Source of the DNA: Promethearchaeota archaeon
GTDB taxonomy: Archaea; Asgardarchaeota; Lokiarchaeia; Sigyniarchaeales; Promethearchaeaceae
Assembly: GCA_016933055.1 (NCBI GenBank)
Contig: JAFGBS010000008.1
Location: 90,001 to 122,000, forward strand
DNA: 32,000 bases
Direction: 5' to 3'
The translations under genes were made by a program, and so were the position numbers. Shown piece by piece: positions 1,296-29,410 of this stretch. A model generated the notes under the pieces. It did not search any database. It saw nothing but the letters and a program-made list of their open reading frames with translations, and was not told the origin of the DNA. Position 1 is the first letter of the stretch, and the number at the start of each line of letters is the position of its first letter.

Positions 1296-4200
1296 CTAAG
1301 TTTGAGCCGATTTACTTCTTCGTTTAATTTGTTGTATATTAGCTAGAACAAGTCGTCTCATATTAGGACTCATAGTCGCACCTGTTACTTCAGCGTCGTA
1401 AACTAGAAAAGGGATCTGATTATCAAGATATATAGGTTTAAGAATTGCTTGTGATATTCGATATGGTAAACAGAACTGTGGTCCAATTAAGATTAAAGAG
1501 TCGAATGCATTTCCGTGGATTGTCTCCATTCCTTTTCCAATTGCAGGGATTGATTCTCCAAAAATTTTGGGACTTATCAAGGATTGCGCATTTGCAAAAA
1601 TCTGTTCGATATTAGTAGGATGCGAATACAATAATCCAGTTCTTTCAAATCTTTTTCGCATAGATCGCTCTACCCATTCCATAAAGCGCAAGGATACTTT
1701 ACTCGCCAGTATTTGGCTTTTTAAATTTGTGGTACCGCTGACCATTTTGCCAAAATACAATCCATACAAAAGAAGTTCAAATAAATCCGTGGATTTTATG
1801 ATCACGCCATGTTGATTGTAGATTTTACTAAGCTCTCTTAGGAAAAAGGGGCTAAATCTCACAAAAAAATCTCCTGAGACCAGAACTTTTGGATATTCCC
1901 TAGGATTTGAGGATCGTGGTATCGTTTTGACTTTTCGAATGAGTTTTCTTATTGCTTTGCGGGACTTCCTCAATTTAGTTGCTGAATCAAGAAATTCTGT
2001 CCAGAATTCGTTCAATAAGATTAATCCTTGCTCATCACCTACTACCCTCAATGCGCTATCAATTTCATGAATAATGTCTCCGAGAACGACATATTTTGGA
2101 GCGGTTCTTAATATTTTAGTTAAGGATCTCCCCATAAAATTATTATATTTATCGAAATTGAAGATAAAGACATCCTCGATTTGATTATCAATGATAAAAC
2201 TTTTGAGATAACTATAATAATTACAGACTACGCAAGGAGAACCACCTCGAAGCATGAAATACCCGATGACTTCTCCAGGTCTTCTATGTTCCGTAAGATA
2301 CTTGATGTGACCAATTACAACGCTTAAGGGATTGCATTCCTTCCCACTACTATGTTTTAGCCCCTCTATTGGGTATTCGGGTATAATATCTGTCGTGAAT
2401 CCTGGATTAAATCCCCAATTTGCAAACATTTTTTCAATTAAATCGGTATGATATTTTGAAAAAGAGGGTGCATAAATCTTTACTCGTGAATCGCTGATTG
2501 GAATTTTTTCTCCTGTACTACTGATCACATGAGGGCTTTTGTTCTCCAATTCTAATTTCGCAATCTGAAACTCCTTTTCTTTATGCGGTTTTTTCATTTT
2601 GCGATAATTTTTAATTATTTCTATAAATGCTTCTAATCGGGTTTGAGTACCCGCATCAGCCTGATGGGCGTCCAATTCTAAAAAAAGATAAGGTTTTGAT
2701 TTTAATTCCGTTCTAACATAATTTTGGATGAAAGAATCAATAGTACAGCTAAAACTATTAATATATAAAATAAATAAATTATCATTATTTCGCACCATCT
2801 CCACTGCATGCTTGATACAATTCGCAAAATACCAAGGAAATGAAGTTGTATTAGCATCAATTTCTGAATAACCGAAATCATATTCCAGGAAGTCAAATGG
2901 TATTACATTAATTCCCATACTTACAAGTTTTTTCGGAATAGATTGAGAGGTCTCAGCTGGAAAGGCATTATAACTTCTCCCGACAAGCAGGATCCCAATA
3001 TCATCAGTTTTCGAAATACTGTCCAAGCTCTCTCTCCCTTTTAATAGAAATTTGTTTTCTACCTCTAATTGTGCTGCCACTGCTCCCTTATAAGCCCTCG
3101 TACATATTTCTATCGGGATTTTGAGTTCCTCAGTTGCAAATTGAATCAATTCAGTTCGATTTTCATATCCATCTGAGAAATCTAAGACTGGTTTGTAAAT
3201 ATTAGCAGAATTAAAAGCTTGAGAAATAATATAGGGACTTGCTTGAGTAATCGGACAAAAAGTAGAGTCTTCCCACCCCTCTTTCTGGGTCATGGTATGA
3301 ATGTGCGGTAAAAATATGTTCTTTATCCCCTTTTTAACTAAATCTAACACGGCTCCATGAAGAATTTGCATAGGATAACATAACGGAGCATTTGTGACTT
3401 TTTCCATTTCTTCATCGATCCCCGATAAAACAACTTCGAAACCTAATTCCGTAAAAAATCTGGAAAATAATGGATACAGACTATGAGTTAATAGTGCCCG
3501 AGGGATACCCAACTTTCCTTTCGAATATGAAATTATCACAGATGAATAGGGTTTTTGGAACACAAGATTATTGCGAAATGCTACTAAGTCTTCTTTTTCT
3601 TGAATTTTTTTGGATTGTTTCCACATGTGCTCATAACGGGAGCATTTTCCCCCAAAGGGAAATTTTCTTCCCCCTACTTCATATTGTTCAATTGTACATA
3701 AGTTCGTACAAGATCTACATGTGAATCTGCCTACATGTCTCATAGGTTCACGCACTAGGGAAGATAACGTAACGTTCTCAGGTATAAGGTCAATCTCCTG
3801 CAATAAATGCTTTTCTTTAGCGATAAGTGCAATTCCAAAGGCTCCAATCAGTTCAGGATTGGAAGGAATAATAATTTGTCTACCTGTGATTTGGGCAAAT
3901 GCATAACCTACGGCAGAGTTTTTTGCAACTCCGCCTTGAAAAAATATTTTTTTCTTCCCAATTGGACGGGATCCCTTGACTTTATTTAGGTAATTATTTG
4001 CGATGGAATACACTAACCCTGCAATTATGTTCTCCCGTCCATATCCTTCTTGTAGGGCAGTTCTGATATCGGTATTGATAAATGCTGCGCAATCTGCTTT
4101 AAAACTGACTGGTTCTTGTGCTTTCATCGCTTCCTCTGCGATTTCATAAACATTTACGCCCAAATCACATTTAGCGCTTTCTTCAAGAAAACTGCCTGTA

Positions 4201-5465
4201 CCAGCCGAACAGCTTGCATTCATGGCGTAATCTACTGGTACTCCGTTTTCTAGATACATATATTTGCTATCTTGACCCCCGATTTCGAAAATAGTTTCTA
4301 CATCAGCATCATAATAGGCAGCTCCTGCTGAATGGGCCGAAATTTCATTATATACAGCTGGTGTACCTAAATATGCACCAACAATCGCTCGACCTGAACC
4401 TGTAACTCCTATTAATTGGAGATTATGGTCTCCCACTTGATCCAAGATGTTTTGGATGGACTCTTTGGTAGCTTTAACGGGATTACCATTAGTTCGCCCA
4501 TAATGTGAAGCGATTATTGCATTCTCATCAGCGTCCATTAACACTGCTTTAGTGGTTGTTGATCCTACATCAATTCCTAGGATATATCTTTTATCAAGGG
4601 TTTTGTGAATTGATGGTTCAGTCGTTATTATAGTGACCAGATCGCGATAATTTCCCAAACTGGGCAACGTAGTGAAAGATTTACTTATATTGAGTTTCGG
4701 AACAGTAAATTGGGGTGAATCTTTAACAAGAAGGGCCGCTCCAAGTGCCTCATATACTGCACTTTCGGGTTTAATGATTATTTCCACTTCTTTTAAGCAT
4801 TCTTTAAGAATTGATACAAATGCATCATTTAATGATAATCCTCCAATTAATAGAACTCTTTTTGGTTCAATGCGGGATTGCCATATCAATCCCATTACTT
4901 TATTCACCATGCTTAATAGAATGGAATATAAAATATCCTCAAGTTTTTCTTCTCCACGATTTAACTTGTGGGTGATATCAGATTTGCAATGAACTGAACA
5001 TCGTGATGCTAATTCGATTTTTTTTCCCTTCTGGGCTAAAATTATCGCTTCATCTAAAGATAATGCTAAACGTTCAATTTGTTGAAGGAAGAACTCTCCC
5101 GAACCCGCTGCACATTTGTCATGGGATAAAGAATTCACGATATGGTGCTGTTCGTTTAAAACATATAATACAAATGCCTCCCCTCCGAGAGATAAAACCA
5201 AATCAAATGGCTTGTTTTCTTCTGAAATGGCACGCTCAATACTTTCTATCTCTGATATATCTCCAAATGAACCGCATACTCCATAATAGTTTTTTTGTGA
5301 GTTTTCTGGATAGGCTTGGCTTAAAATAGTAGTTAGAATTTCTTGGGGCTTTCCTTGATGAGGCTTTTTAGTGAGTCTCACATTATTTTGGCTATCTATA
5401 CTAACTACATTGACCGAAACAGAACCAATATTTACTCCGATATATTGATTGGTAATACAATCCAC
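1296..5465 (-). CDS. Fused CoA-substrate-specific activase (2 x BcrAD/BadFG ASKHA ATPase) with DUF2229 / 2-hydroxyacyl-CoA dehydratase-like domains
   Basis: Two ASKHA domains: GVNIGSVS / GGE / KCAAGSG / RCSVHC and GIDVGSTTTK / GVTGSGR / EIGGQDSK / MNASCSAGTG / CAAF / FQGGVAKN. These are followed by CRSCTNLC, LGIPRAL, CYP, FCP, GRSYN, FSCTID, LELDAH, ECNP and GPQFCLP. The exact start (GTG) is uncertain. Confidence 0.85.
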   Translation of the reverse strand: MDCITNQYIGVNIGSVSVNVVSIDSQNNVRLTKKPHQGKPQEILTTILSQAYPENSQKNYYGVCGSFGDISEIESIERAISEENKPFDLVLSLGGEAFVLYVLNEQHHIVNSLSHDKCAAGSGEFFLQQIERLALSLDEAIILAQKGKKIELASRCSVHCKSDITHKLNRGEEKLEDILYSILLSMVNKVMGLIWQSRIEPKRVLLIGGLSLNDAFVSILKECLKEVEIIIKPESAVYEALGAALLVKDSPQFTVPKLNISKSFTTLPSLGNYRDLVTIITTEPSIHKTLDKRYILGIDVGSTTTKAVLMDADENAIIASHYGRTNGNPVKATKESIQNILDQVGDHNLQLIGVTGSGRAIVGAYLGTPAVYNEISAHSAGAAYYDADVETIFEIGGQDSKYMYLENGVPVDYAMNASCSAGTGSFLEESAKCDLGVNVYEIAEEAMKAQEPVSFKADCAAFINTDIRTALQEGYGRENIIAGLVYSIANNYLNKVKGSRPIGKKKIFFQGGVAKNSAVGYAFAQITGRQIIIPSNPELIGAFGIALIAKEKHLLQEIDLIPENVTLSSLVREPMRHVGRFTCRSCTNLCTIEQYEVGGRKFPFGGKCSRYEHMWKQSKKIQEKEDLVAFRNNLVFQKPYSSVIISYSKGKLGIPRALLTHSLYPLFSRFFTELGFEVVLSGIDEEMEKVTNAPLCYPMQILHGAVLDLVKKGIKNIFLPHIHTMTQKEGWEDSTFCPITQASPYIISQAFNSANIYKPVLDFSDGYENRTELIQFATEELKIPIEICTRAYKGAVAAQLEVENKFLLKGRESLDSISKTDDIGILLVGRSYNAFPAETSQSIPKKLVSMGINVIPFDFLEYDFGYSEIDANTTSFPWYFANCIKHAVEMVRNNDNLFILYINSFSCTIDSFIQNYVRTELKSKPYLFLELDAHQADAGTQTRLEAFIEIIKNYRKMKKPHKEKEFQIAKLELENKSPHVISSTGEKIPISDSRVKIYAPSFSKYHTDLIEKMFANWGFNPGFTTDIIPEYPIEGLKHSSGKECNPLSVVIGHIKYLTEHRRPGEVIGYFMLRGGSPCVVCNYYSYLKSFIIDNQIEDVFIFNFDKYNNFMGRSLTKILRTAPKYVVLGDIIHEIDSALRVVGDEQGLILLNEFWTEFLDSATKLRKSRKAIRKLIRKVKTIPRSSNPREYPKVLVSGDFFVRFSPFFLRELSKIYNQHGVIIKSTDLFELLLYGLYFGKMVSGTTNLKSQILASKVSLRFMEWVERSMRKRFERTGLLYSHPTNIEQIFANAQSLISPKIFGESIPAIGKGMETIHGNAFDSLILIGPQFCLPYRISQAILKPIYLDNQIPFLVYDAEVTGATMSPNMRRLVLANIQQIKRRSKSAQT

Positions 5466-23531: not shown

Positions 23532-24890
23532 ATGTATGAGGTTTCTTTGTTTGTATTTTCCCGAGATCTAAGAATTTATGATAACACAGCATTAGTTAAT
23601 GCCCTAAACGAATCTAAAAAGGTTATTCCATGTTATTTTTTCAAAGATGAAGTTGAAGTATTACACAAATCTAATCCATTTTGGTCCTACTTCCTAATAG
23701 AATCGTTACAATCCCTCAATAAAACACTTATAAATCAAAAAGGGCGTTTATTCCTTTTCACTGGCAACATGATGAATCATCTCCTTACAATTAAAAAGTC
23801 TACATATTTTAACGCAATTTTTCTTAATCATGAATATTCACCGTATTGGAATTCAATAAAGCAGAATTTAGAATCCTTAAATGTACCTATTTATATTTCT
23901 GAAGATTATCTATTAAACAAGCCTGAGTCTGTGTTGACAACAGCTAATAATCCCTTTCAAGTGTTCACTCCTTTTTTCAATACTGCAAGAGTAAAACCAG
24001 TACGTATTCCCAGTCCAATTTATCATCAAAATTTTTTCACGGAACCCCTCCCAGAGGAATTGGATTTTTCACCGAGGAAGTGGGGAGATCTCGAACTGAA
24101 AAAACATGTCCATTTCCATGGAGGCAGAGAGAATGGACTCAAAATTTTAAAAAATTTAAAAAAGTTCAAGAACTATGCTGTTGAACGAGATATCCCCTCT
24201 ATAAATGGAACAACCTCCTTATCTGCACATTTAAATCTAGGTACTTGTTCCATCCGTGAAACCTATCATGAAATGGTAAACCAGTTGGGAATTGATCATC
24301 CCCTAGTTCGACAGTTATATTGGCGTGAATTTTATGTATACGTTGCAAATCACTATCCACACGTGTTTTCAAGTAATTTCCGGGAAAAATATGATCACTT
24401 AGAATGGATAAATGATGAAGAATTAATGCAAAAGTGGAAGGACGGAATGACCGGATTTCCCATTATAGATGCTGGAATAAGGCAATTGAACCAAACGGGA
24501 TTCATGCATAATCGAGTTCGTATGATTGTTGGATCATTTTTAACTAAAGATCTTCACATTGATTGGAAGTTGGGAGAAAAATATTTTGCAGAAAAGCTAA
24601 CGGATTTCGATCCCATGCTAAATAATGGAAACTGGCAATGGATTGCTGGTACTGGTTGTGATGCTGCTCCATACTTTCGGGTGTTTAATCCGTGGACACA
24701 GCAAAAGAAGCATGATCCTGAATGTATCTATATTAAACGATGGATTCCTGAATTGCAGGATGTTGAAAGTCAAAAGATCCATAATATATATAAAAAACCT
24801 CTCAGTGATTCAGTGAACTACCCAAAACCAATTCTGGACCATTCTAAAGAGAGAATAAACGCTTTGGCAATGTATAAATCCGTAAAATGA
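23532..24890 (+). CDS. phr: Deoxyribodipyrimidine photolyase / cryptochrome family protein (class I CPD photolyase-like)
   Basis: RDLRIYDN, VFTPF, TTSLSAHL, RQLYWREF, GMTGFPIIDAG, GFMHNRVRM, FLTKDL, DWKLG, NNGNWQW, YFRVFNP, YIKRWIPEL. Trp-triad positions are present (LEW, IDW, NWQW). Confidence 0.95.
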   Translation: MYEVSLFVFSRDLRIYDNTALVNALNESKKVIPCYFFKDEVEVLHKSNPFWSYFLIESLQSLNKTLINQKGRLFLFTGNMMNHLLTIKKSTYFNAIFLNHEYSPYWNSIKQNLESLNVPIYISEDYLLNKPESVLTTANNPFQVFTPFFNTARVKPVRIPSPIYHQNFFTEPLPEELDFSPRKWGDLELKKHVHFHGGRENGLKILKNLKKFKNYAVERDIPSINGTTSLSAHLNLGTCSIRETYHEMVNQLGIDHPLVRQLYWREFYVYVANHYPHVFSSNFREKYDHLEWINDEELMQKWKDGMTGFPIIDAGIRQLNQTGFMHNRVRMIVGSFLTKDLHIDWKLGEKYFAEKLTDFDPMLNNGNWQWIAGTGCDAAPYFRVFNPWTQQKKHDPECIYIKRWIPELQDVESQKIHNIYKKPLSDSVNYPKPILDHSKERINALAMYKSVK

Positions 24891-24895
24891 CCGTA

Positions 24896-26437
24896 TCATT
24901 CTTTAAGGTGTTGGGAGGGTAATTTAACCTTAGCTCGCTTGGAAAAGGTTTCCACTTTACGTTTCGCCCTATGTAGGGGGGATAGAGTTCCGGGACCTCC
25001 AATGCATCCATAAGGGCACGCCATACCCTCAACTAGAAGGGGTCTGGGAGAAATTTTACTATTTTGTATATTTTTTAACATCATCATGCAATCTGCTAAG
25101 GTGTCTGCGGAAGTAAAAGGAATATCAATTTCTTTTCCTAAGATCTCTTTGGTTTGTGCAAGAATAGCATCGGCTACTCCTCCCGCAACAGCATAAGCCC
25201 TCCCTACTTCTGAAGCATCGCTAATTTCTTCTTCTACGTTCATTTCAGAGGGATCAATACTAAAAGCTTGGAATAATGCACCTAATTCTTCAAAAGTCAT
25301 TACAAAATCTACTAATTCAGCAACTTCTGGTGTAAAACACTCATTCTTTTTTGCAATGCACGGACCAAGAAATACAACTCTGGCTTCAGGGTCCATTTTT
25401 TTTATTTTGCGCGCAGCTTCCACCATTGGAGTAAAGGACTCGGATATGTTTATCGCTTGTTTAGGAAAATTCGTAATTGCTGCCAGTACCCATGCAGGAC
25501 AACAGCTTGTACCTATATACCTACGCTTATCTTTAGTCTTCTTAGATACTAAATCTGCTAATTCCCTCGATAAGATAAGAGTATCAACATCTGCTCCATA
25601 TGCAACCTCCACGACACCCGCAAATCCAATTTGCTTTAAGGCTGCAATAATCATAGATGGTTTTACCAACGGCCCAAACTGGCCAACAAAACTTGGAGCG
25701 ATCTCCACGTACACGGGTTTCTCTCCTCTAAGAGTATAGATGATCTGAACAATCTCAGATTTCTCCCCAATTGCCCCGAACGGGCAACTAACTATGCATA
25801 ATCCGCAGCTCACGCATTTTTCATAATCGATCTCGGCAAAACCATTTTCATCAGAACTTATCGCATTTACTCCGCATGCTTGAGCACAAGGTCGTTCACG
25901 ATGGACAATTGCATTATACGGGCAAGCTTGTGCACATCGACCGCACCTTATACATTTCTCCTGATCGATAATCGCAGCCTTCTCTCCGATTGTAACTGCT
26001 TCGACGGGGCAAACAATACTACAGGGGTGTGCCATACATTTTCTGCAGTTATTTGTAACCCAGAAACTGTCCGTTTCGCATCGTTCGCATCCCGCTTTAA
26101 TAACATTGACGATTGGACGAGATAAGAATTTTTTATCCGTCATAGCTGGAGTTACATCATCAATAATGGGACCATGTGCCCCAAATTCTTTCAAATCTAG
26201 ACCAAAAGCTAATCTTGCTCTCTCTCGAACGATTGCTCGTTCTCTAAACACCGATTCACGATAGGTTGGGGTGTCTTTAGATATGATATTATAAGGGATT
26301 GTTTCTATATATGACGGAGGGTGACCCTCCACGATCATTCTTGCAACCTCTGTGAGAACTTGGCGACGTACATTCTTCACCGGAGTAAAAATTCCACGCA
26401 TTTTTTCAAAAATAGAGAGCTTGGGTAAATCTGGCAT
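24896..26437 (-). CDS. Monomeric [FeFe]-hydrogenase, group B type, with N-terminal [4Fe-4S] domain
   Basis: H-cluster motifs P1 TSCCPAW, P2 GPCIAKKNE and P3 EGMACPYGCIGG, plus APS and GADV. The 16 N-terminal Cys fall in CERC, CRKCxxxxCxxxCP, CIRCGRCAQACP, CAQAC and CVSCGLCIVSCP. ATG 26437 is preferred over TTG 26449. Confidence 0.9.
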   Translation of the reverse strand: MPDLPKLSIFEKMRGIFTPVKNVRRQVLTEVARMIVEGHPPSYIETIPYNIISKDTPTYRESVFRERAIVRERARLAFGLDLKEFGAHGPIIDDVTPAMTDKKFLSRPIVNVIKAGCERCETDSFWVTNNCRKCMAHPCSIVCPVEAVTIGEKAAIIDQEKCIRCGRCAQACPYNAIVHRERPCAQACGVNAISSDENGFAEIDYEKCVSCGLCIVSCPFGAIGEKSEIVQIIYTLRGEKPVYVEIAPSFVGQFGPLVKPSMIIAALKQIGFAGVVEVAYGADVDTLILSRELADLVSKKTKDKRRYIGTSCCPAWVLAAITNFPKQAINISESFTPMVEAARKIKKMDPEARVVFLGPCIAKKNECFTPEVAELVDFVMTFEELGALFQAFSIDPSEMNVEEEISDASEVGRAYAVAGGVADAILAQTKEILGKEIDIPFTSADTLADCMMMLKNIQNSKISPRPLLVEGMACPYGCIGGPGTLSPLHRAKRKVETFSKRAKVKLPSQHLKE

Positions 26438-26462
26438 TGTAGTTAACAATAGAAACTATAGC

Positions 26463-26708
26463 TTAGTTTATAAAAGTACGCAATGTGGAAACTAGACGTT
26501 CTGGGGTTATTTTCATATAGTTTTCTCCATTAATAGAAACTACAGGGGATAGCGCACCATCATCACAACACTGTAAACAATTAACGGGAATAAAATCGAA
26601 TTGATCTCCTTGAAATAATGGATTAGATTCAATGAGATCCAGTAATTCTTGACCTCCCTTTAAACTACAATGTAATCCACAGCATACTTCCACAGATACT
26701 TTTCGCAT
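26463..26708 (-). CDS. Thioredoxin-like [2Fe-2S] ferredoxin (NuoE/HydC-like), 81 aa
   Basis: VEVCCGLHCSLKGG (Cx4C) and NCLQCC (Cx3C), then PVVSING. It lies directly upstream of the hydrogenase on the same strand. Confidence 0.85.
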   Translation of the reverse strand: MRKVSVEVCCGLHCSLKGGQELLDLIESNPLFQGDQFDFIPVNCLQCCDDGALSPVVSINGENYMKITPERLVSTLRTFIN

Positions 26709-26732
26709 ACCATTTAATGCACATGAAGATAT

Positions 26733-26738
26733 TTTAAA
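26733..26738 (-). promoter_or_regulatory. Archaeal TATA box (TTTAAA) for the ferredoxin-hydrogenase unit
   Basis: 24 nt upstream of the ATG at 26708. Confidence 0.55.
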
Positions 26739-26753
26739 TCAATCTGATATTCT

Positions 26754-28304
26754 TTAGTGAAAATTCATAAGAACATCGACTGCATAAGAACCTAAAAACG
26801 TAATATAATCGAACGAAGATAGTAATATACGGAATTTTGGATACTCCCAACCCACTTTGGATGCATTCATTACAGATTGAAGCCCTTGTATTCCAAAATG
26901 GGTAAAAAATCCTTGGAATTCGAAAAGTTCGATTGTGTCAATACCAGTATATTTAACTAGCGCTAAATCATGCAAAATTTTGTCCGTTGTATCGTAAGTA
27001 GGGAATGATCCAGTACATCCAATCGCCACTGCCCCATTTTCTGGATAATATTTGTTTACTATTCTAGATTGCATAAACACATATCCTTGCGTATTTGGAT
27101 TCACATGATACTCGCAATGTCTATAGAGCATGTAACTGGCTCGATCCCAGTAATCCGTTTCCGGCGGGTAATTTATTATACCAAACATCTGTTGTATATC
27201 AGGATCTCCGTCCATATCTCGTAAAGTCATGTCCATGCCAACCAGTCCTATCTCATATCCAAACGTGGATCGCCAATCATTCATAATTGATACATATGCA
27301 TCCACGGTTTCTGTCCAATTTTTCTCCGTTTCCAGTTTATGACCTAGTAAATTATACATAGATGAGAAAGGGGATCTTGGGGTCTCTTCACTTACTGTTT
27401 GATCAAATTCAAAATCCATAATTATACCTGTTATATTAAGTGCAAAATTTGCTACCCATGAATCGAATATGCTTTTAAAAACCGGTAAATAACTAATGTC
27501 TTCCCATGAGGGATACATTCCATTTTCCTCATAGTAAAACCAGATATAGACATCTATTCCACTACTTGTGCAATTTTGTATTATTTTAGCAGTTCTGAAA
27601 GACTTATTAGAATCCATTAGAGTATTTTCGGATACATGCATGATAATTTGAGCAGGTATAACACCAAGATTTGAAGATCCGTTAAGCACACCTAAAATCG
27701 AATTATTTGTGAGATAATCGTAACTCACTTCGGAAGCATAAAATGAGAGTTTTAACGTTTCATTCATGTAGGGATCGGAATTAATATCAATAGTTTTATA
27801 ATATATGCCCAATCCGTTTGTTGGTAAGATAATTACCGATTGGAGAATCACGAAAGTAATGATTAAGGCATAAAAATAATTTTGTTTCCCCCGAATCTGG
27901 AGTCTGGTTTGAATTCCTTTTCGTTTACACTGCAAAATTTCGACTATGACACAACCAAACCGTGCAACATTTGATAATAATAAGAATAAATAAAGAAAGA
28001 ACCCCAAAGATAATTTCACGCTCAAAAATAGACTGAATATACTCAAAATACAGGCATTTACCAGAATTGTGATAATGGAATACATTAATTGGATTGTAAA
28101 TGCTTTTTTTTGTATGAACCATATTCTAGTGAATATTATTAATATAAAATTCATAGAAAATACGAAAAGAAACGAAATATAATACAAAAAAATCCCAAAA
28201 TTCATCAAATTCAAGAACAATACTGAAAAGAAATATGCATAGAAACCAAAATTCAAAACTGTATCTATTTCCACAAAGATTTTAGTGTATTTAGAAATCT
28301 TCAC
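26754..28304 (-). CDS. Membrane protein with about five N-terminal TM helices and a C-terminal soluble domain, possibly a TIM-barrel glycoside hydrolase
   Basis: Hydrophobic N-terminal about 165 aa. The soluble part alternates short beta-like segments and helices and includes ITGIIMDFE and YMLYR. Coding call is firm, function is inferred. Confidence 0.6.
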   Translation of the reverse strand: MKISKYTKIFVEIDTVLNFGFYAYFFSVLFLNLMNFGIFLYYISFLFVFSMNFILIIFTRIWFIQKKAFTIQLMYSIITILVNACILSIFSLFLSVKLSLGFFLYLFLLLSNVARFGCVIVEILQCKRKGIQTRLQIRGKQNYFYALIITFVILQSVIILPTNGLGIYYKTIDINSDPYMNETLKLSFYASEVSYDYLTNNSILGVLNGSSNLGVIPAQIIMHVSENTLMDSNKSFRTAKIIQNCTSSGIDVYIWFYYEENGMYPSWEDISYLPVFKSIFDSWVANFALNITGIIMDFEFDQTVSEETPRSPFSSMYNLLGHKLETEKNWTETVDAYVSIMNDWRSTFGYEIGLVGMDMTLRDMDGDPDIQQMFGIINYPPETDYWDRASYMLYRHCEYHVNPNTQGYVFMQSRIVNKYYPENGAVAIGCTGSFPTYDTTDKILHDLALVKYTGIDTIELFEFQGFFTHFGIQGLQSVMNASKVGWEYPKFRILLSSFDYITFLGSYAVDVLMNFH

Positions 28305-28390
28305 AATTTATCCAACTTTCTATTCTTTTAATATTATTAGGATAGTACGGATAAATATAAGACTGGTTGCAACACGTTTTATTGATAAAT

Positions 28391-29410
28391 ATGGAGGAAA
28401 AACAAGACCACATCGAAGTGGGAGCATTTTTTGATGCTCTCGAGAAAGAGTTAGAAATTGACGACCAATCGTCTAAGCATTCCCTAGTCGAACGAAAACC
28501 TCTAATACCCAAAAAACAGATGCAGCATCACCCATCCTTTCCCTATCAAGAAACGAATTCCATAAAAATCCAGCGAAAAACTCCTCTAGACTATATGATC
28601 CGCAAAAATCAAGAAGTAAAATCATCCCAAACACATAAACTTCCCACCTATAATGATTATCAGAACCAAATTTCTAATAGAAATCGTTTGGATCCTATAT
28701 CTAAAACGACAGCTTATCCGAATTATTCAGAAAACTCCGGAGTTCCACAATTAAATGAACCCCCAAATTCCATTCCTCCGAGAAATTTTCAGCAGGAGTC
28801 TACACTTTCATCCAATTCTTCCCTCTATAATAGATATTACGTTACAGATAGACCCAAAATTTCTCATCCTCCTGAGCAAACTCCTGATAACTCGTATTTA
28901 CGAACTCAAATGCTAAAAGAATTGCGAACTCAACAAAATAGACAACCCATCGAGATTTCACGCAGTAGACTGCAACCCCCCACTGTCCCTCTATCCCCCC
29001 ACTCCACAAGCAGTTCAGTCTGTTCTCCGCAAAAATCTCCACCTATGATCGATATGGATTCATACTACATTGAAGAAGAATCCAACATAAAACAACAATA
29101 CATCAATGAAGTCGATTTAATTCGCTGTTTACGAGAAATTCGGGACAAAGCAAAAATCGATGTGATATTGGAATTATTAGATGGTCAATGGCATGATGAA
29201 AATGAATTACTACGAGTCGCCAAAAAAACGCGTGACTTTATTGGTGTAGTTGGGTTTGGAATGTTAATGTATTCATTTGAAGACAGTGTATCAAAATCAT
29301 TTTTAATTAAGAAAGTCAATCCCGGCAATTCCTCTTGGTTTAAAATAAACGATAATTATATACAACTGGCTCGTTCTGCTTATTCACAATACAAGAAAAC
29401 CGAAAATTAA
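28391..29410 (+). CDS. Hypothetical protein: long P/Q/S-rich disordered region with a C-terminal winged-helix-like domain
   Basis: Long ORF. About the first 235 aa are low complexity. The last about 95 aa look ordered (KIDVILELLDGQWHDENELL...FLIKK...WFKIN). ATG 28391 is preferred over TTG 28367. Confidence 0.65.
   Translation: MEEKQDHIEVGAFFDALEKELEIDDQSSKHSLVERKPLIPKKQMQHHPSFPYQETNSIKIQRKTPLDYMIRKNQEVKSSQTHKLPTYNDYQNQISNRNRLDPISKTTAYPNYSENSGVPQLNEPPNSIPPRNFQQESTLSSNSSLYNRYYVTDRPKISHPPEQTPDNSYLRTQMLKELRTQQNRQPIEISRSRLQPPTVPLSPHSTSSSVCSPQKSPPMIDMDSYYIEEESNIKQQYINEVDLIRCLREIRDKAKIDVILELLDGQWHDENELLRVAKKTRDFIGVVGFGMLMYSFEDSVSKSFLIKKVNPGNSSWFKINDNYIQLARSAYSQYKKTEN

Follow-up and report, generated by a model that had tools for sequence, protein, structure and literature searches.

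A 32,000-nucleotide stretch of DNA (contig JAFGBS010000008.1 of assembly GCA_016933055.1, positions 90,001 to 122,000, forward strand), hereafter the window, carries on its minus strand two adjacent genes, hydC and hydA. We consider it likely, at a probability of roughly three in four, that they form an operon for a group B [FeFe]-hydrogenase, a ferredoxin-dependent heterodimer that evolves H2, in an archaeon of the family Promethearchaeaceae that lives by fermentation and probably in syntrophy. The host genome, placed by NCBI in the Promethearchaeaceae (Promethearchaeota), comprises 3.76 Mb in 36 contigs and is estimated to be 91% complete and 3.3% contaminated; the window lies on its contig C15 (199 kb). 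A preliminary description of this DNA had proposed a two-component, fermentative, H2-evolving enzyme of group B in an Asgard-like host, leaving its maturation open. That interpretation is correct in every element but not new, since the same was published in 2024 for cultured members of the same family (PMC11216029). Archaeal [FeFe]-hydrogenases overturned a long-held rule on the distribution of these enzymes, a discovery that had thus already been made, and syntrophy models of eukaryogenesis give a central place to the transfer of H2 from an Asgard host. The features of the locus are:

24896..26437, minus strand: hydA, catalytic subunit of a group B [FeFe]-hydrogenase, 513 amino acids (aa) from the ATG at 26437
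26438..26462, minus strand: hydC-hydA spacer, 25 nucleotides (nt), containing no Shine-Dalgarno-like motif
26463..26708, minus strand: hydC, thioredoxin-fold [2Fe-2S] ferredoxin of 81 aa, predicted small subunit of HydA
26730..26738, minus strand: TATA-like element TTTAAAATA, its centre ∼26 nt upstream of the hydC ATG

Both open reading frames (ORFs) were found on the minus strand where the preliminary description had placed them, but the start of hydA was corrected. An in-frame TTG at 26449 would yield a protein of 517 aa (ORF 24896-26449); the ATG at 26437 is the likely start, since relatives keep 'MP..' N-termini and the 513-aa form is the one present in the protein collection. HydA scored 539.6 bits on the NCBIfam model TIGR04105 (FeFe_hydrog_B1, described as 'monomeric [FeFe] hydrogenase'; cut-off 450), the match spanning profile positions 3-460 of 462. 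This was the sole hydrogenase model to score above its cut-off, the group A models reaching 131-136 bits against cut-offs of 406-765. Pfam recognised the [FeFe]-hydrogenase large-subunit domain PF02906 (6e-52) and several Fer4 (4Fe-4S) families. The assignment to group B was upheld by these scores and by motif 2, which reads Phe-x-Gly-Pro-Cys as in the enzyme CpIII (F356-x-G358-P-C360 in 513-aa numbering, invariant in the Asgard alignment), with Gly replacing M353 of CpI.

In the same numbering, HydA consists of an N-terminal helical region (∼1-110), two 2x[4Fe-4S] ferredoxin-like domains with 16 Cys (residues 117-218) and the H-cluster domain (∼240-490). The earlier count of 16 N-terminal Cys proved exact (16 before the H-domain and 7 after it); they show ferredoxin-type spacings, are all invariant in an alignment of 29 Asgard group B sequences, and would be enough for four [4Fe-4S] clusters. 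The three H-cluster motifs, TSCCPAW, GPCIAKKNE and EGMACPYGCIGG, located at 314, 362 and 474 in the numbering of the 517-aa ORF, are complete, as had been stated. The key catalytic residues were invariant across the 29 sequences: the four cluster-ligating Cys, the proton-relay Cys (equivalent to C299 of CpI), a Lys (K358), a Met (M497) and a Ser (S319), together with a Glu and the Gly and Pro of motif 2. Alignment with CpI matched the relay residue C299 and the ligands C300 and C355, K358, E361 and S319 being kept, while the Cys of motif 3 paired with those of ...MACPGGC... in HydA1 of T. kivui (8a6t), the equivalents of CpI C499 and C503. At the CpI proton-pathway positions E279, E282 and R286 the protein has Glu, Asp and Lys, respectively. 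Apart from two outer relay positions, every residue mapped in this way is invariant in the 29 sequences. The AlphaFold2 model of HydA was confident, with a predicted local distance difference test score (pLDDT) of 87.7 and a predicted template-modelling score (pTM) of 0.86. Its best PDB matches were the [FeFe]-hydrogenases CbA5H, CpI and HydABC (E ∼1e-20), all of group A and 19-26% identical; a PDB search with the HydA sequence also had group A enzymes as its best matches (E ∼1e-29), and the PDB contains no group B structure. As a separate observation, the Harpocratesius-type orthologues (G011:C1:1477472-1479103 and G003:C53) carry an insertion of ∼30-40 residues in a variable loop just before TSCC, at alignment columns ∼313-350.

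The 81-aa thioredoxin-like ferredoxin that had been claimed upstream of hydA was borne out by a match of HydC to PF01257 (35.8 bits, cut-off 24.8) over profile positions 65-142 of 145, which form the C-terminal half; judged by this match, HydC is the counterpart of the cluster-binding C-terminal half of NuoE/HydC. Its Cys follow the pattern C9-x4-C14...C44-x3-C48, and among 21 homologues C9 and C14 were invariant and C44 and C48 were retained in at least 90%. In each of the ten Asgard relatives for which upstream DNA was available, hydA is immediately preceded by a hydC-like gene, an adjacency confirmed on longer stretches from six of them; the same arrangement occurs in a sister contig (L109) and in a Sigynarchaeota contig carrying the archaeal lipid gene CarS. 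Comparison of the window with the 12-20 kb neighbourhoods of six relatives revealed no shared genes beyond hydC and hydA, which therefore constitute a self-contained two-gene module.

When HydA and HydC were modelled together, the interface score ipSAE was 0.76 (0.75-0.77 in three runs), while the best of three controls gave 0.01; 58 of 80 solved complexes attained the mark used for this score, as did 2 of 110 mismatched pairs. At least 96% of the contacts were common to the runs, and the pLDDT of HydC was at least 84. The predicted interface involves residues 10-24 and 41-44 of HydC, i.e. the loops with the cluster ligands, and residues 15-29, 254-258, 386-398 and 485-490 of HydA. The model thus supports binding of HydC to HydA and, with the constant presence of hydC upstream in relatives, agrees with the proposal of a two-component enzyme.

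The pairing extends beyond the archaea. At least 29 of 78 bacterial group B loci, from Bacillota, Spirochaetota, Halanaerobium and others, have a hydC-like gene of ∼80-90 aa immediately ahead of hydA (e.g. L013:5374-7539), and in Holophaga foetida a HydC domain and HydA share one open frame, suggestive of a fusion. The usual term for group B enzymes is monomeric; many of them, including bacterial ones to which this term is now applied, may have HydC as an obligate small subunit. The wide occurrence of this small partner in bacterial group B loci is an addition of the present analysis.

In the mechanism we favour, ferredoxin would be reduced by the many 2-oxoacid:ferredoxin oxidoreductases of the genome, which encodes at least six alpha subunits of the POR type. 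Electrons would then pass from reduced ferredoxin through the four [4Fe-4S] clusters in the two ferredoxin-like domains of HydA to the H-cluster, protons would arrive by the conserved Cys/Ser/Glu relay, and the H2 formed would be removed by partner organisms. HydC, as the small subunit, would dock through its [2Fe-2S]-binding loops on HydA, at the H-domain and the helices of the N-terminus; its candidate roles are those of an extra redox site, stabilisation or regulation. The [2Fe] subcluster would be made or acquired without HydE, HydF and HydG. Besides two [NiFe]-hydrogenase large-subunit genes, the genome contains just one gene for an [FeFe]-hydrogenase, that of group B; this set, together with the oxidoreductases, fits a fermenter that needs to reoxidise ferredoxin.

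Several points weigh against this interpretation. The HydA-HydC complex is a prediction only, and solved HydABC complexes hold a NuoE-like HydC, so that a partial memory effect is possible in the model, although HydA is only ∼21-26% identical to the HydA of those complexes. Two outer positions of the CpI proton pathway are variable among the 29 Asgard sequences. The two [NiFe]-hydrogenases could by themselves explain the H2 metabolism of the host. Finally, a profile search of the 91%-complete genome gave no match to HydE, HydF or HydG above cut-off, nor did HydF or HydG turn up in any of 41 related genomes, three of which consist of a single contig and carry hydA; the assembly of the [2Fe] subcluster in vivo is therefore left unexplained.

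The direction of catalysis might also be the reverse of that proposed. Under this alternative the same protein would be an uptake hydrogenase, with electrons from H2 passed to ferredoxin for carbon fixation or anaerobic respiration. [FeFe]-hydrogenases are reversible, and Greening et al. leave H2 consumption by the Asgard group B enzymes possible (PMC11216029). However, the group B enzymes characterised so far are H2 producers tied to ferredoxin reoxidation, the cultured members of the family are hydrogenogenic syntrophs, and ferredoxin-reducing oxidoreductases are abundant in the genome. Uptake as the role of this enzyme seems to us improbable.

The question of maturation bears on a second alternative. 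The preliminary description had noted the absence of hydE, hydF and hydG from the window, which was confirmed, and the search of the whole genome that it had suggested was the negative one reported above. The weak matches seen were rejected as maturases: those to HydE were a MiaB/RimO-type methylthiotransferase and a HemN-like radical SAM protein, and those to HydF were generic GTPases (23-38 bits). Conserved accessory genes near hydCA were likewise rejected as alternative maturases, only hydC and hydA being common to the neighbourhoods of the six relatives. A 289-aa PP-loop ATPase with weak QueC/ThiI-type matches was observed 7-9 kb from hydA in four of these six (L103:18336-19205, L105:1509-2378, L107:2107-2973 and L108:82-942); it is not near hydCA in the window, and no evidence of a functional link was found. 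One archaeal order holds both hydA-positive and hydA-negative genomes, all of them without maturases; of 40 relatives searched, about 13 carry hydA and the others lack it.

If HydA never received its [2Fe] subcluster in vivo, it could be a multi-[4Fe-4S] electron-transfer protein or a slowly decaying bacterial gene acquired by transfer. The failure to find HydE, HydF and HydG in the genome, the same failure for HydF and HydG in the 41 related ones (three of them single-contig), and the nature of the only weak HydE-like matches all speak for this possibility. Against it, the residues that serve the [2Fe] site alone do not vary among the 29 Asgard sequences, at identities down to ∼54%. They comprise the Cys of the proton relay, the Lys that binds CN, the motif 3 Met and the Phe-x-Gly of motif 2, and relaxed selection would have eroded them. 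In addition, while the GC content of hydA (0.42) is at the 99.6th percentile of 1.5-kb windows of the genome, that at third codon positions (GC3) is 0.325 and host-like. The GC excess is due to amino-acid composition and not to recent horizontal transfer, which was rejected, and the host-like GC3 indicates a gene long resident in this lineage. Moreover, some eukaryotes lacking the maturases have been reported to make active [FeFe]-hydrogenases (PMC11216029). A HydA devoid of its [2Fe] subcluster is in our view improbable. We give about even odds to activation of HydA in vivo by an H-cluster route free of HydEFG, encoded elsewhere in the Promethearchaeales or using a precursor from a syntrophic partner. 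The idea of an alternative route was already raised in the Cell 2024 paper (PMC11216029). If it is true, this lineage would be a clean comparative test bed for finding the route; strict conservation of the H-cluster pocket with no detectable maturase across 41 genomes sharpens the question of maturation.

That the host is an Asgard archaeon, as had been proposed, was established at several levels. The genome carries an archaeal small-subunit ribosomal RNA (16S, 1461 bits) and 54 matches to Ras-family GTPases, two of them on C15; an abundance of Ras-type GTPases is typical of Asgard archaea. The nearest HydA homologue (81-82% identity) lies on independent metagenomic contigs in which the gene order is as in the window on both sides. 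The order shared by the window and the sister contig is PAP2, histidine phosphatase, hydC, hydA, C_GCAxxG_C_C, acyltransferase, AAA, VWA, GH172, U32 peptidase, methylase and HVO_0163-type regulator. Three single-contig genomes of the same family, including that of Ca. Harpocratesius repetitus, also carry hydA orthologues. A bacterial contig wrongly binned with an archaeal genome, with the hydrogenase then not archaeal, might be suspected from the 3.3% contamination estimate and from the fact that the closest non-Asgard HydA homologues (54-61% identity) are bacterial, from Spirochaetota and Holophagae. Contamination is effectively excluded by the orthologues in single-contig genomes, by the synteny with an independent contig also bearing hydC-hydA and by C15 itself: over 199 kb its tetranucleotide profile correlates at 0.999 with that of the other contigs, and it encodes both Ras-type GTPases and an archaeal regulator of the HVO_0163 type. 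A sensory (group C/D-like) or Nar1-like, non-catalytic homologue, for which only a general family resemblance can be invoked, is refuted by the domain and motif content of HydA, which has no PAS domain, C-terminal extension or other domain beyond the H-domain, keeps the proton-relay Cys and all H-cluster ligands, and exceeds the cut-off of TIGR04105 alone.

The relationships of HydA were analysed in a maximum-likelihood tree of 54 taxonomically labelled sequences. It fell in a clade of three sequences (support 100/99), which became eight in a larger tree; this well-supported sub-clade, with identities of 75-82%, is drawn entirely from metagenome-assembled genomes or metagenomes. The clade belongs to an unresolved radiation with the main Lokiarchaeial, the Spirochaetota and the Holophagae/Spirochaetes clades, and a bacterial context was confirmed for two members of the bacterial clades by an RND pump and a bacterial flagellin on their contigs. 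A separate Asgard clade (Sigynarchaeota plus a sister family) grouped with Sphaerochaeta-type spirochaetes (support 99/98). In approximately unbiased (AU) tests, which were chosen after the tree had been seen so that their p-values are somewhat weakened, a single clade of all Asgard sequences was rejected (p = 4.7e-5), while forcing the window clade together with the main Lokiarchaeial clade was not (p = 0.087), the monophyly of these two being neither shown nor rejected. There are, then, at least two Asgard clades of group B enzymes, and sequences of Spirochaetota and Holophagae are interleaved with them, in contrast to the one archaeal clade of the 2024 paper (PMC11216029); more than one inter-domain transfer is therefore implied.

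Two further observations concern hydrogenase genes of relatives. Several related genomes (G003-G005, G007-G009 and G011) have a second [FeFe]-hydrogenase of 580-606 aa, ∼30% identical and probably group A-like. In one genome of the sister family, which consists of a single contig, hydA is represented by its C-terminal half alone, a 268-aa open frame (G022:C1:1128865-1129614) that is 49% identical to residues 269-506; the gene may be truncated or split.

As for expression, hydC and hydA are probably co-transcribed. For the TATA box claimed at leaderless spacing there is a TATA-like octamer, TTAAAATA, which matches TTTAWATA at 7 of 8 positions and has its centre 25.5 nt before the hydC ATG; in this AT-rich genome such a match is expected by chance in ∼3% of cases per 10-nt placement window. 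The spacing claim is plausible, as the distance would fit a leaderless or near-leaderless transcript. Another TATA-like octamer, TTTATAAA, starts 37 nt before the hydA ATG, within the 3′-end of hydC (window 26438-26500, minus strand), and may be an internal promoter. A scan for sigma-70 promoters, which has no bearing on an archaeon, yielded fewer sites than shuffled sequences predict. Scans of the window for tRNAs and Rfam families gave no match.

Around the operon, a photolyase gene converging on hydA (23532-24890, plus strand) and a 516-aa multi-pass membrane protein gene upstream of hydC (26754-28304, minus strand) have no counterpart at the corresponding positions among the called genes and Pfam matches of the otherwise syntenic sister contig L109; they are lineage-specific insertions or losses outside the hydrogenase module. 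Upstream of hydC, L109 has a divergent 319-aa gene of no family, and the window has a 347-aa ORF (28367-29410, plus strand). Further away (1296-5465, minus strand), the window encodes a 1389-aa fusion of two BcrAD/BadFG-type ATPase domains, DUF2229 and a piece of 2-hydroxyglutaryl-CoA dehydratase D-component, which looks like an activase-type protein.

Among known systems, HydC resembles the HydC/NuoE subunits of HydABC (group A3) and complex I in its thioredoxin-like fold and its Cx4C...Cx3C [2Fe-2S] site (PF01257), but with only 81 aa it does without their N-terminal helical half. No gene for a NuoF-like HydB flavoprotein was found in the operon or the window, so that there is no basis for electron bifurcation; an electron-bifurcating HydABC enzyme (group A3/A6) was rejected on this ground and on the score of NF040763 (135.6 bits, cut-off 765).

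CpIII of Clostridium pasteurianum is a characterised group B enzyme and an active H2 producer, with F266 and G268 in motif 2 (PMC12138974). HydA of the window is likewise of group B, with Gly for CpI M353, Phe two residues upstream and the proton-relay Cys kept. The two differ in that CpIII has TSCCCP, with a supernumerary Cys, in place of the standard TSCCP; in that the F-domain model of CpIII has only two accessory [4Fe-4S] clusters, whereas the 16 Cys of HydA would be enough for four; and in that no HydC partner is described for CpIII in the available part of that source, while the window operon has one. The group B enzymes of gut Bacteroides and Firmicutes, which reoxidise PFOR-derived ferredoxin (Welsh et al., Nat Microbiol 2025; PMC12578642), are comparable in that they produce H2 in fermentation, reoxidise ferredoxin and have a ferredoxin-like domain attached by a flexible linker. 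Unlike the heterodimer predicted here, they belong to bacterial hosts and are described as monomeric, and their report makes no mention of a hydC-like gene upstream of bacterial group B hydA.

The closest counterparts are the group B [FeFe]-hydrogenases reported from Lokiarchaeia, including Ca. Prometheoarchaeum syntrophicum and Ca. Lokiarchaeum ossiferum (Greening et al., Cell 2024; PMC11216029). For the Ca. P. syntrophicum enzyme, that study presented a model of a heterodimer of HydA and HydC containing two 2x[4Fe-4S] domains, showed transcription in cultures and, once the protein had been matured artificially, observed H2 evolution; HydEFG is absent from most archaeal genomes, that of Ca. 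P. syntrophicum included, and an alternative maturation pathway was proposed (PMC11216029). The window shares with these two organisms the family, the hydC-hydA layout, the domain plan and the lack of HydEFG, and its HydA is 63% identical to the Ca. L. ossiferum protein and 62-65% identical to orthologues in the other genomes of the family. It differs from them in that its HydA belongs to the separate eight-sequence sub-clade, and from several relatives in that its genome has no second, group A-like [FeFe]-hydrogenase and its flanking genes are not common to those relatives. The locus thus adds a further well-assembled example of this enzyme, from a lineage of the family that differs at genus level.

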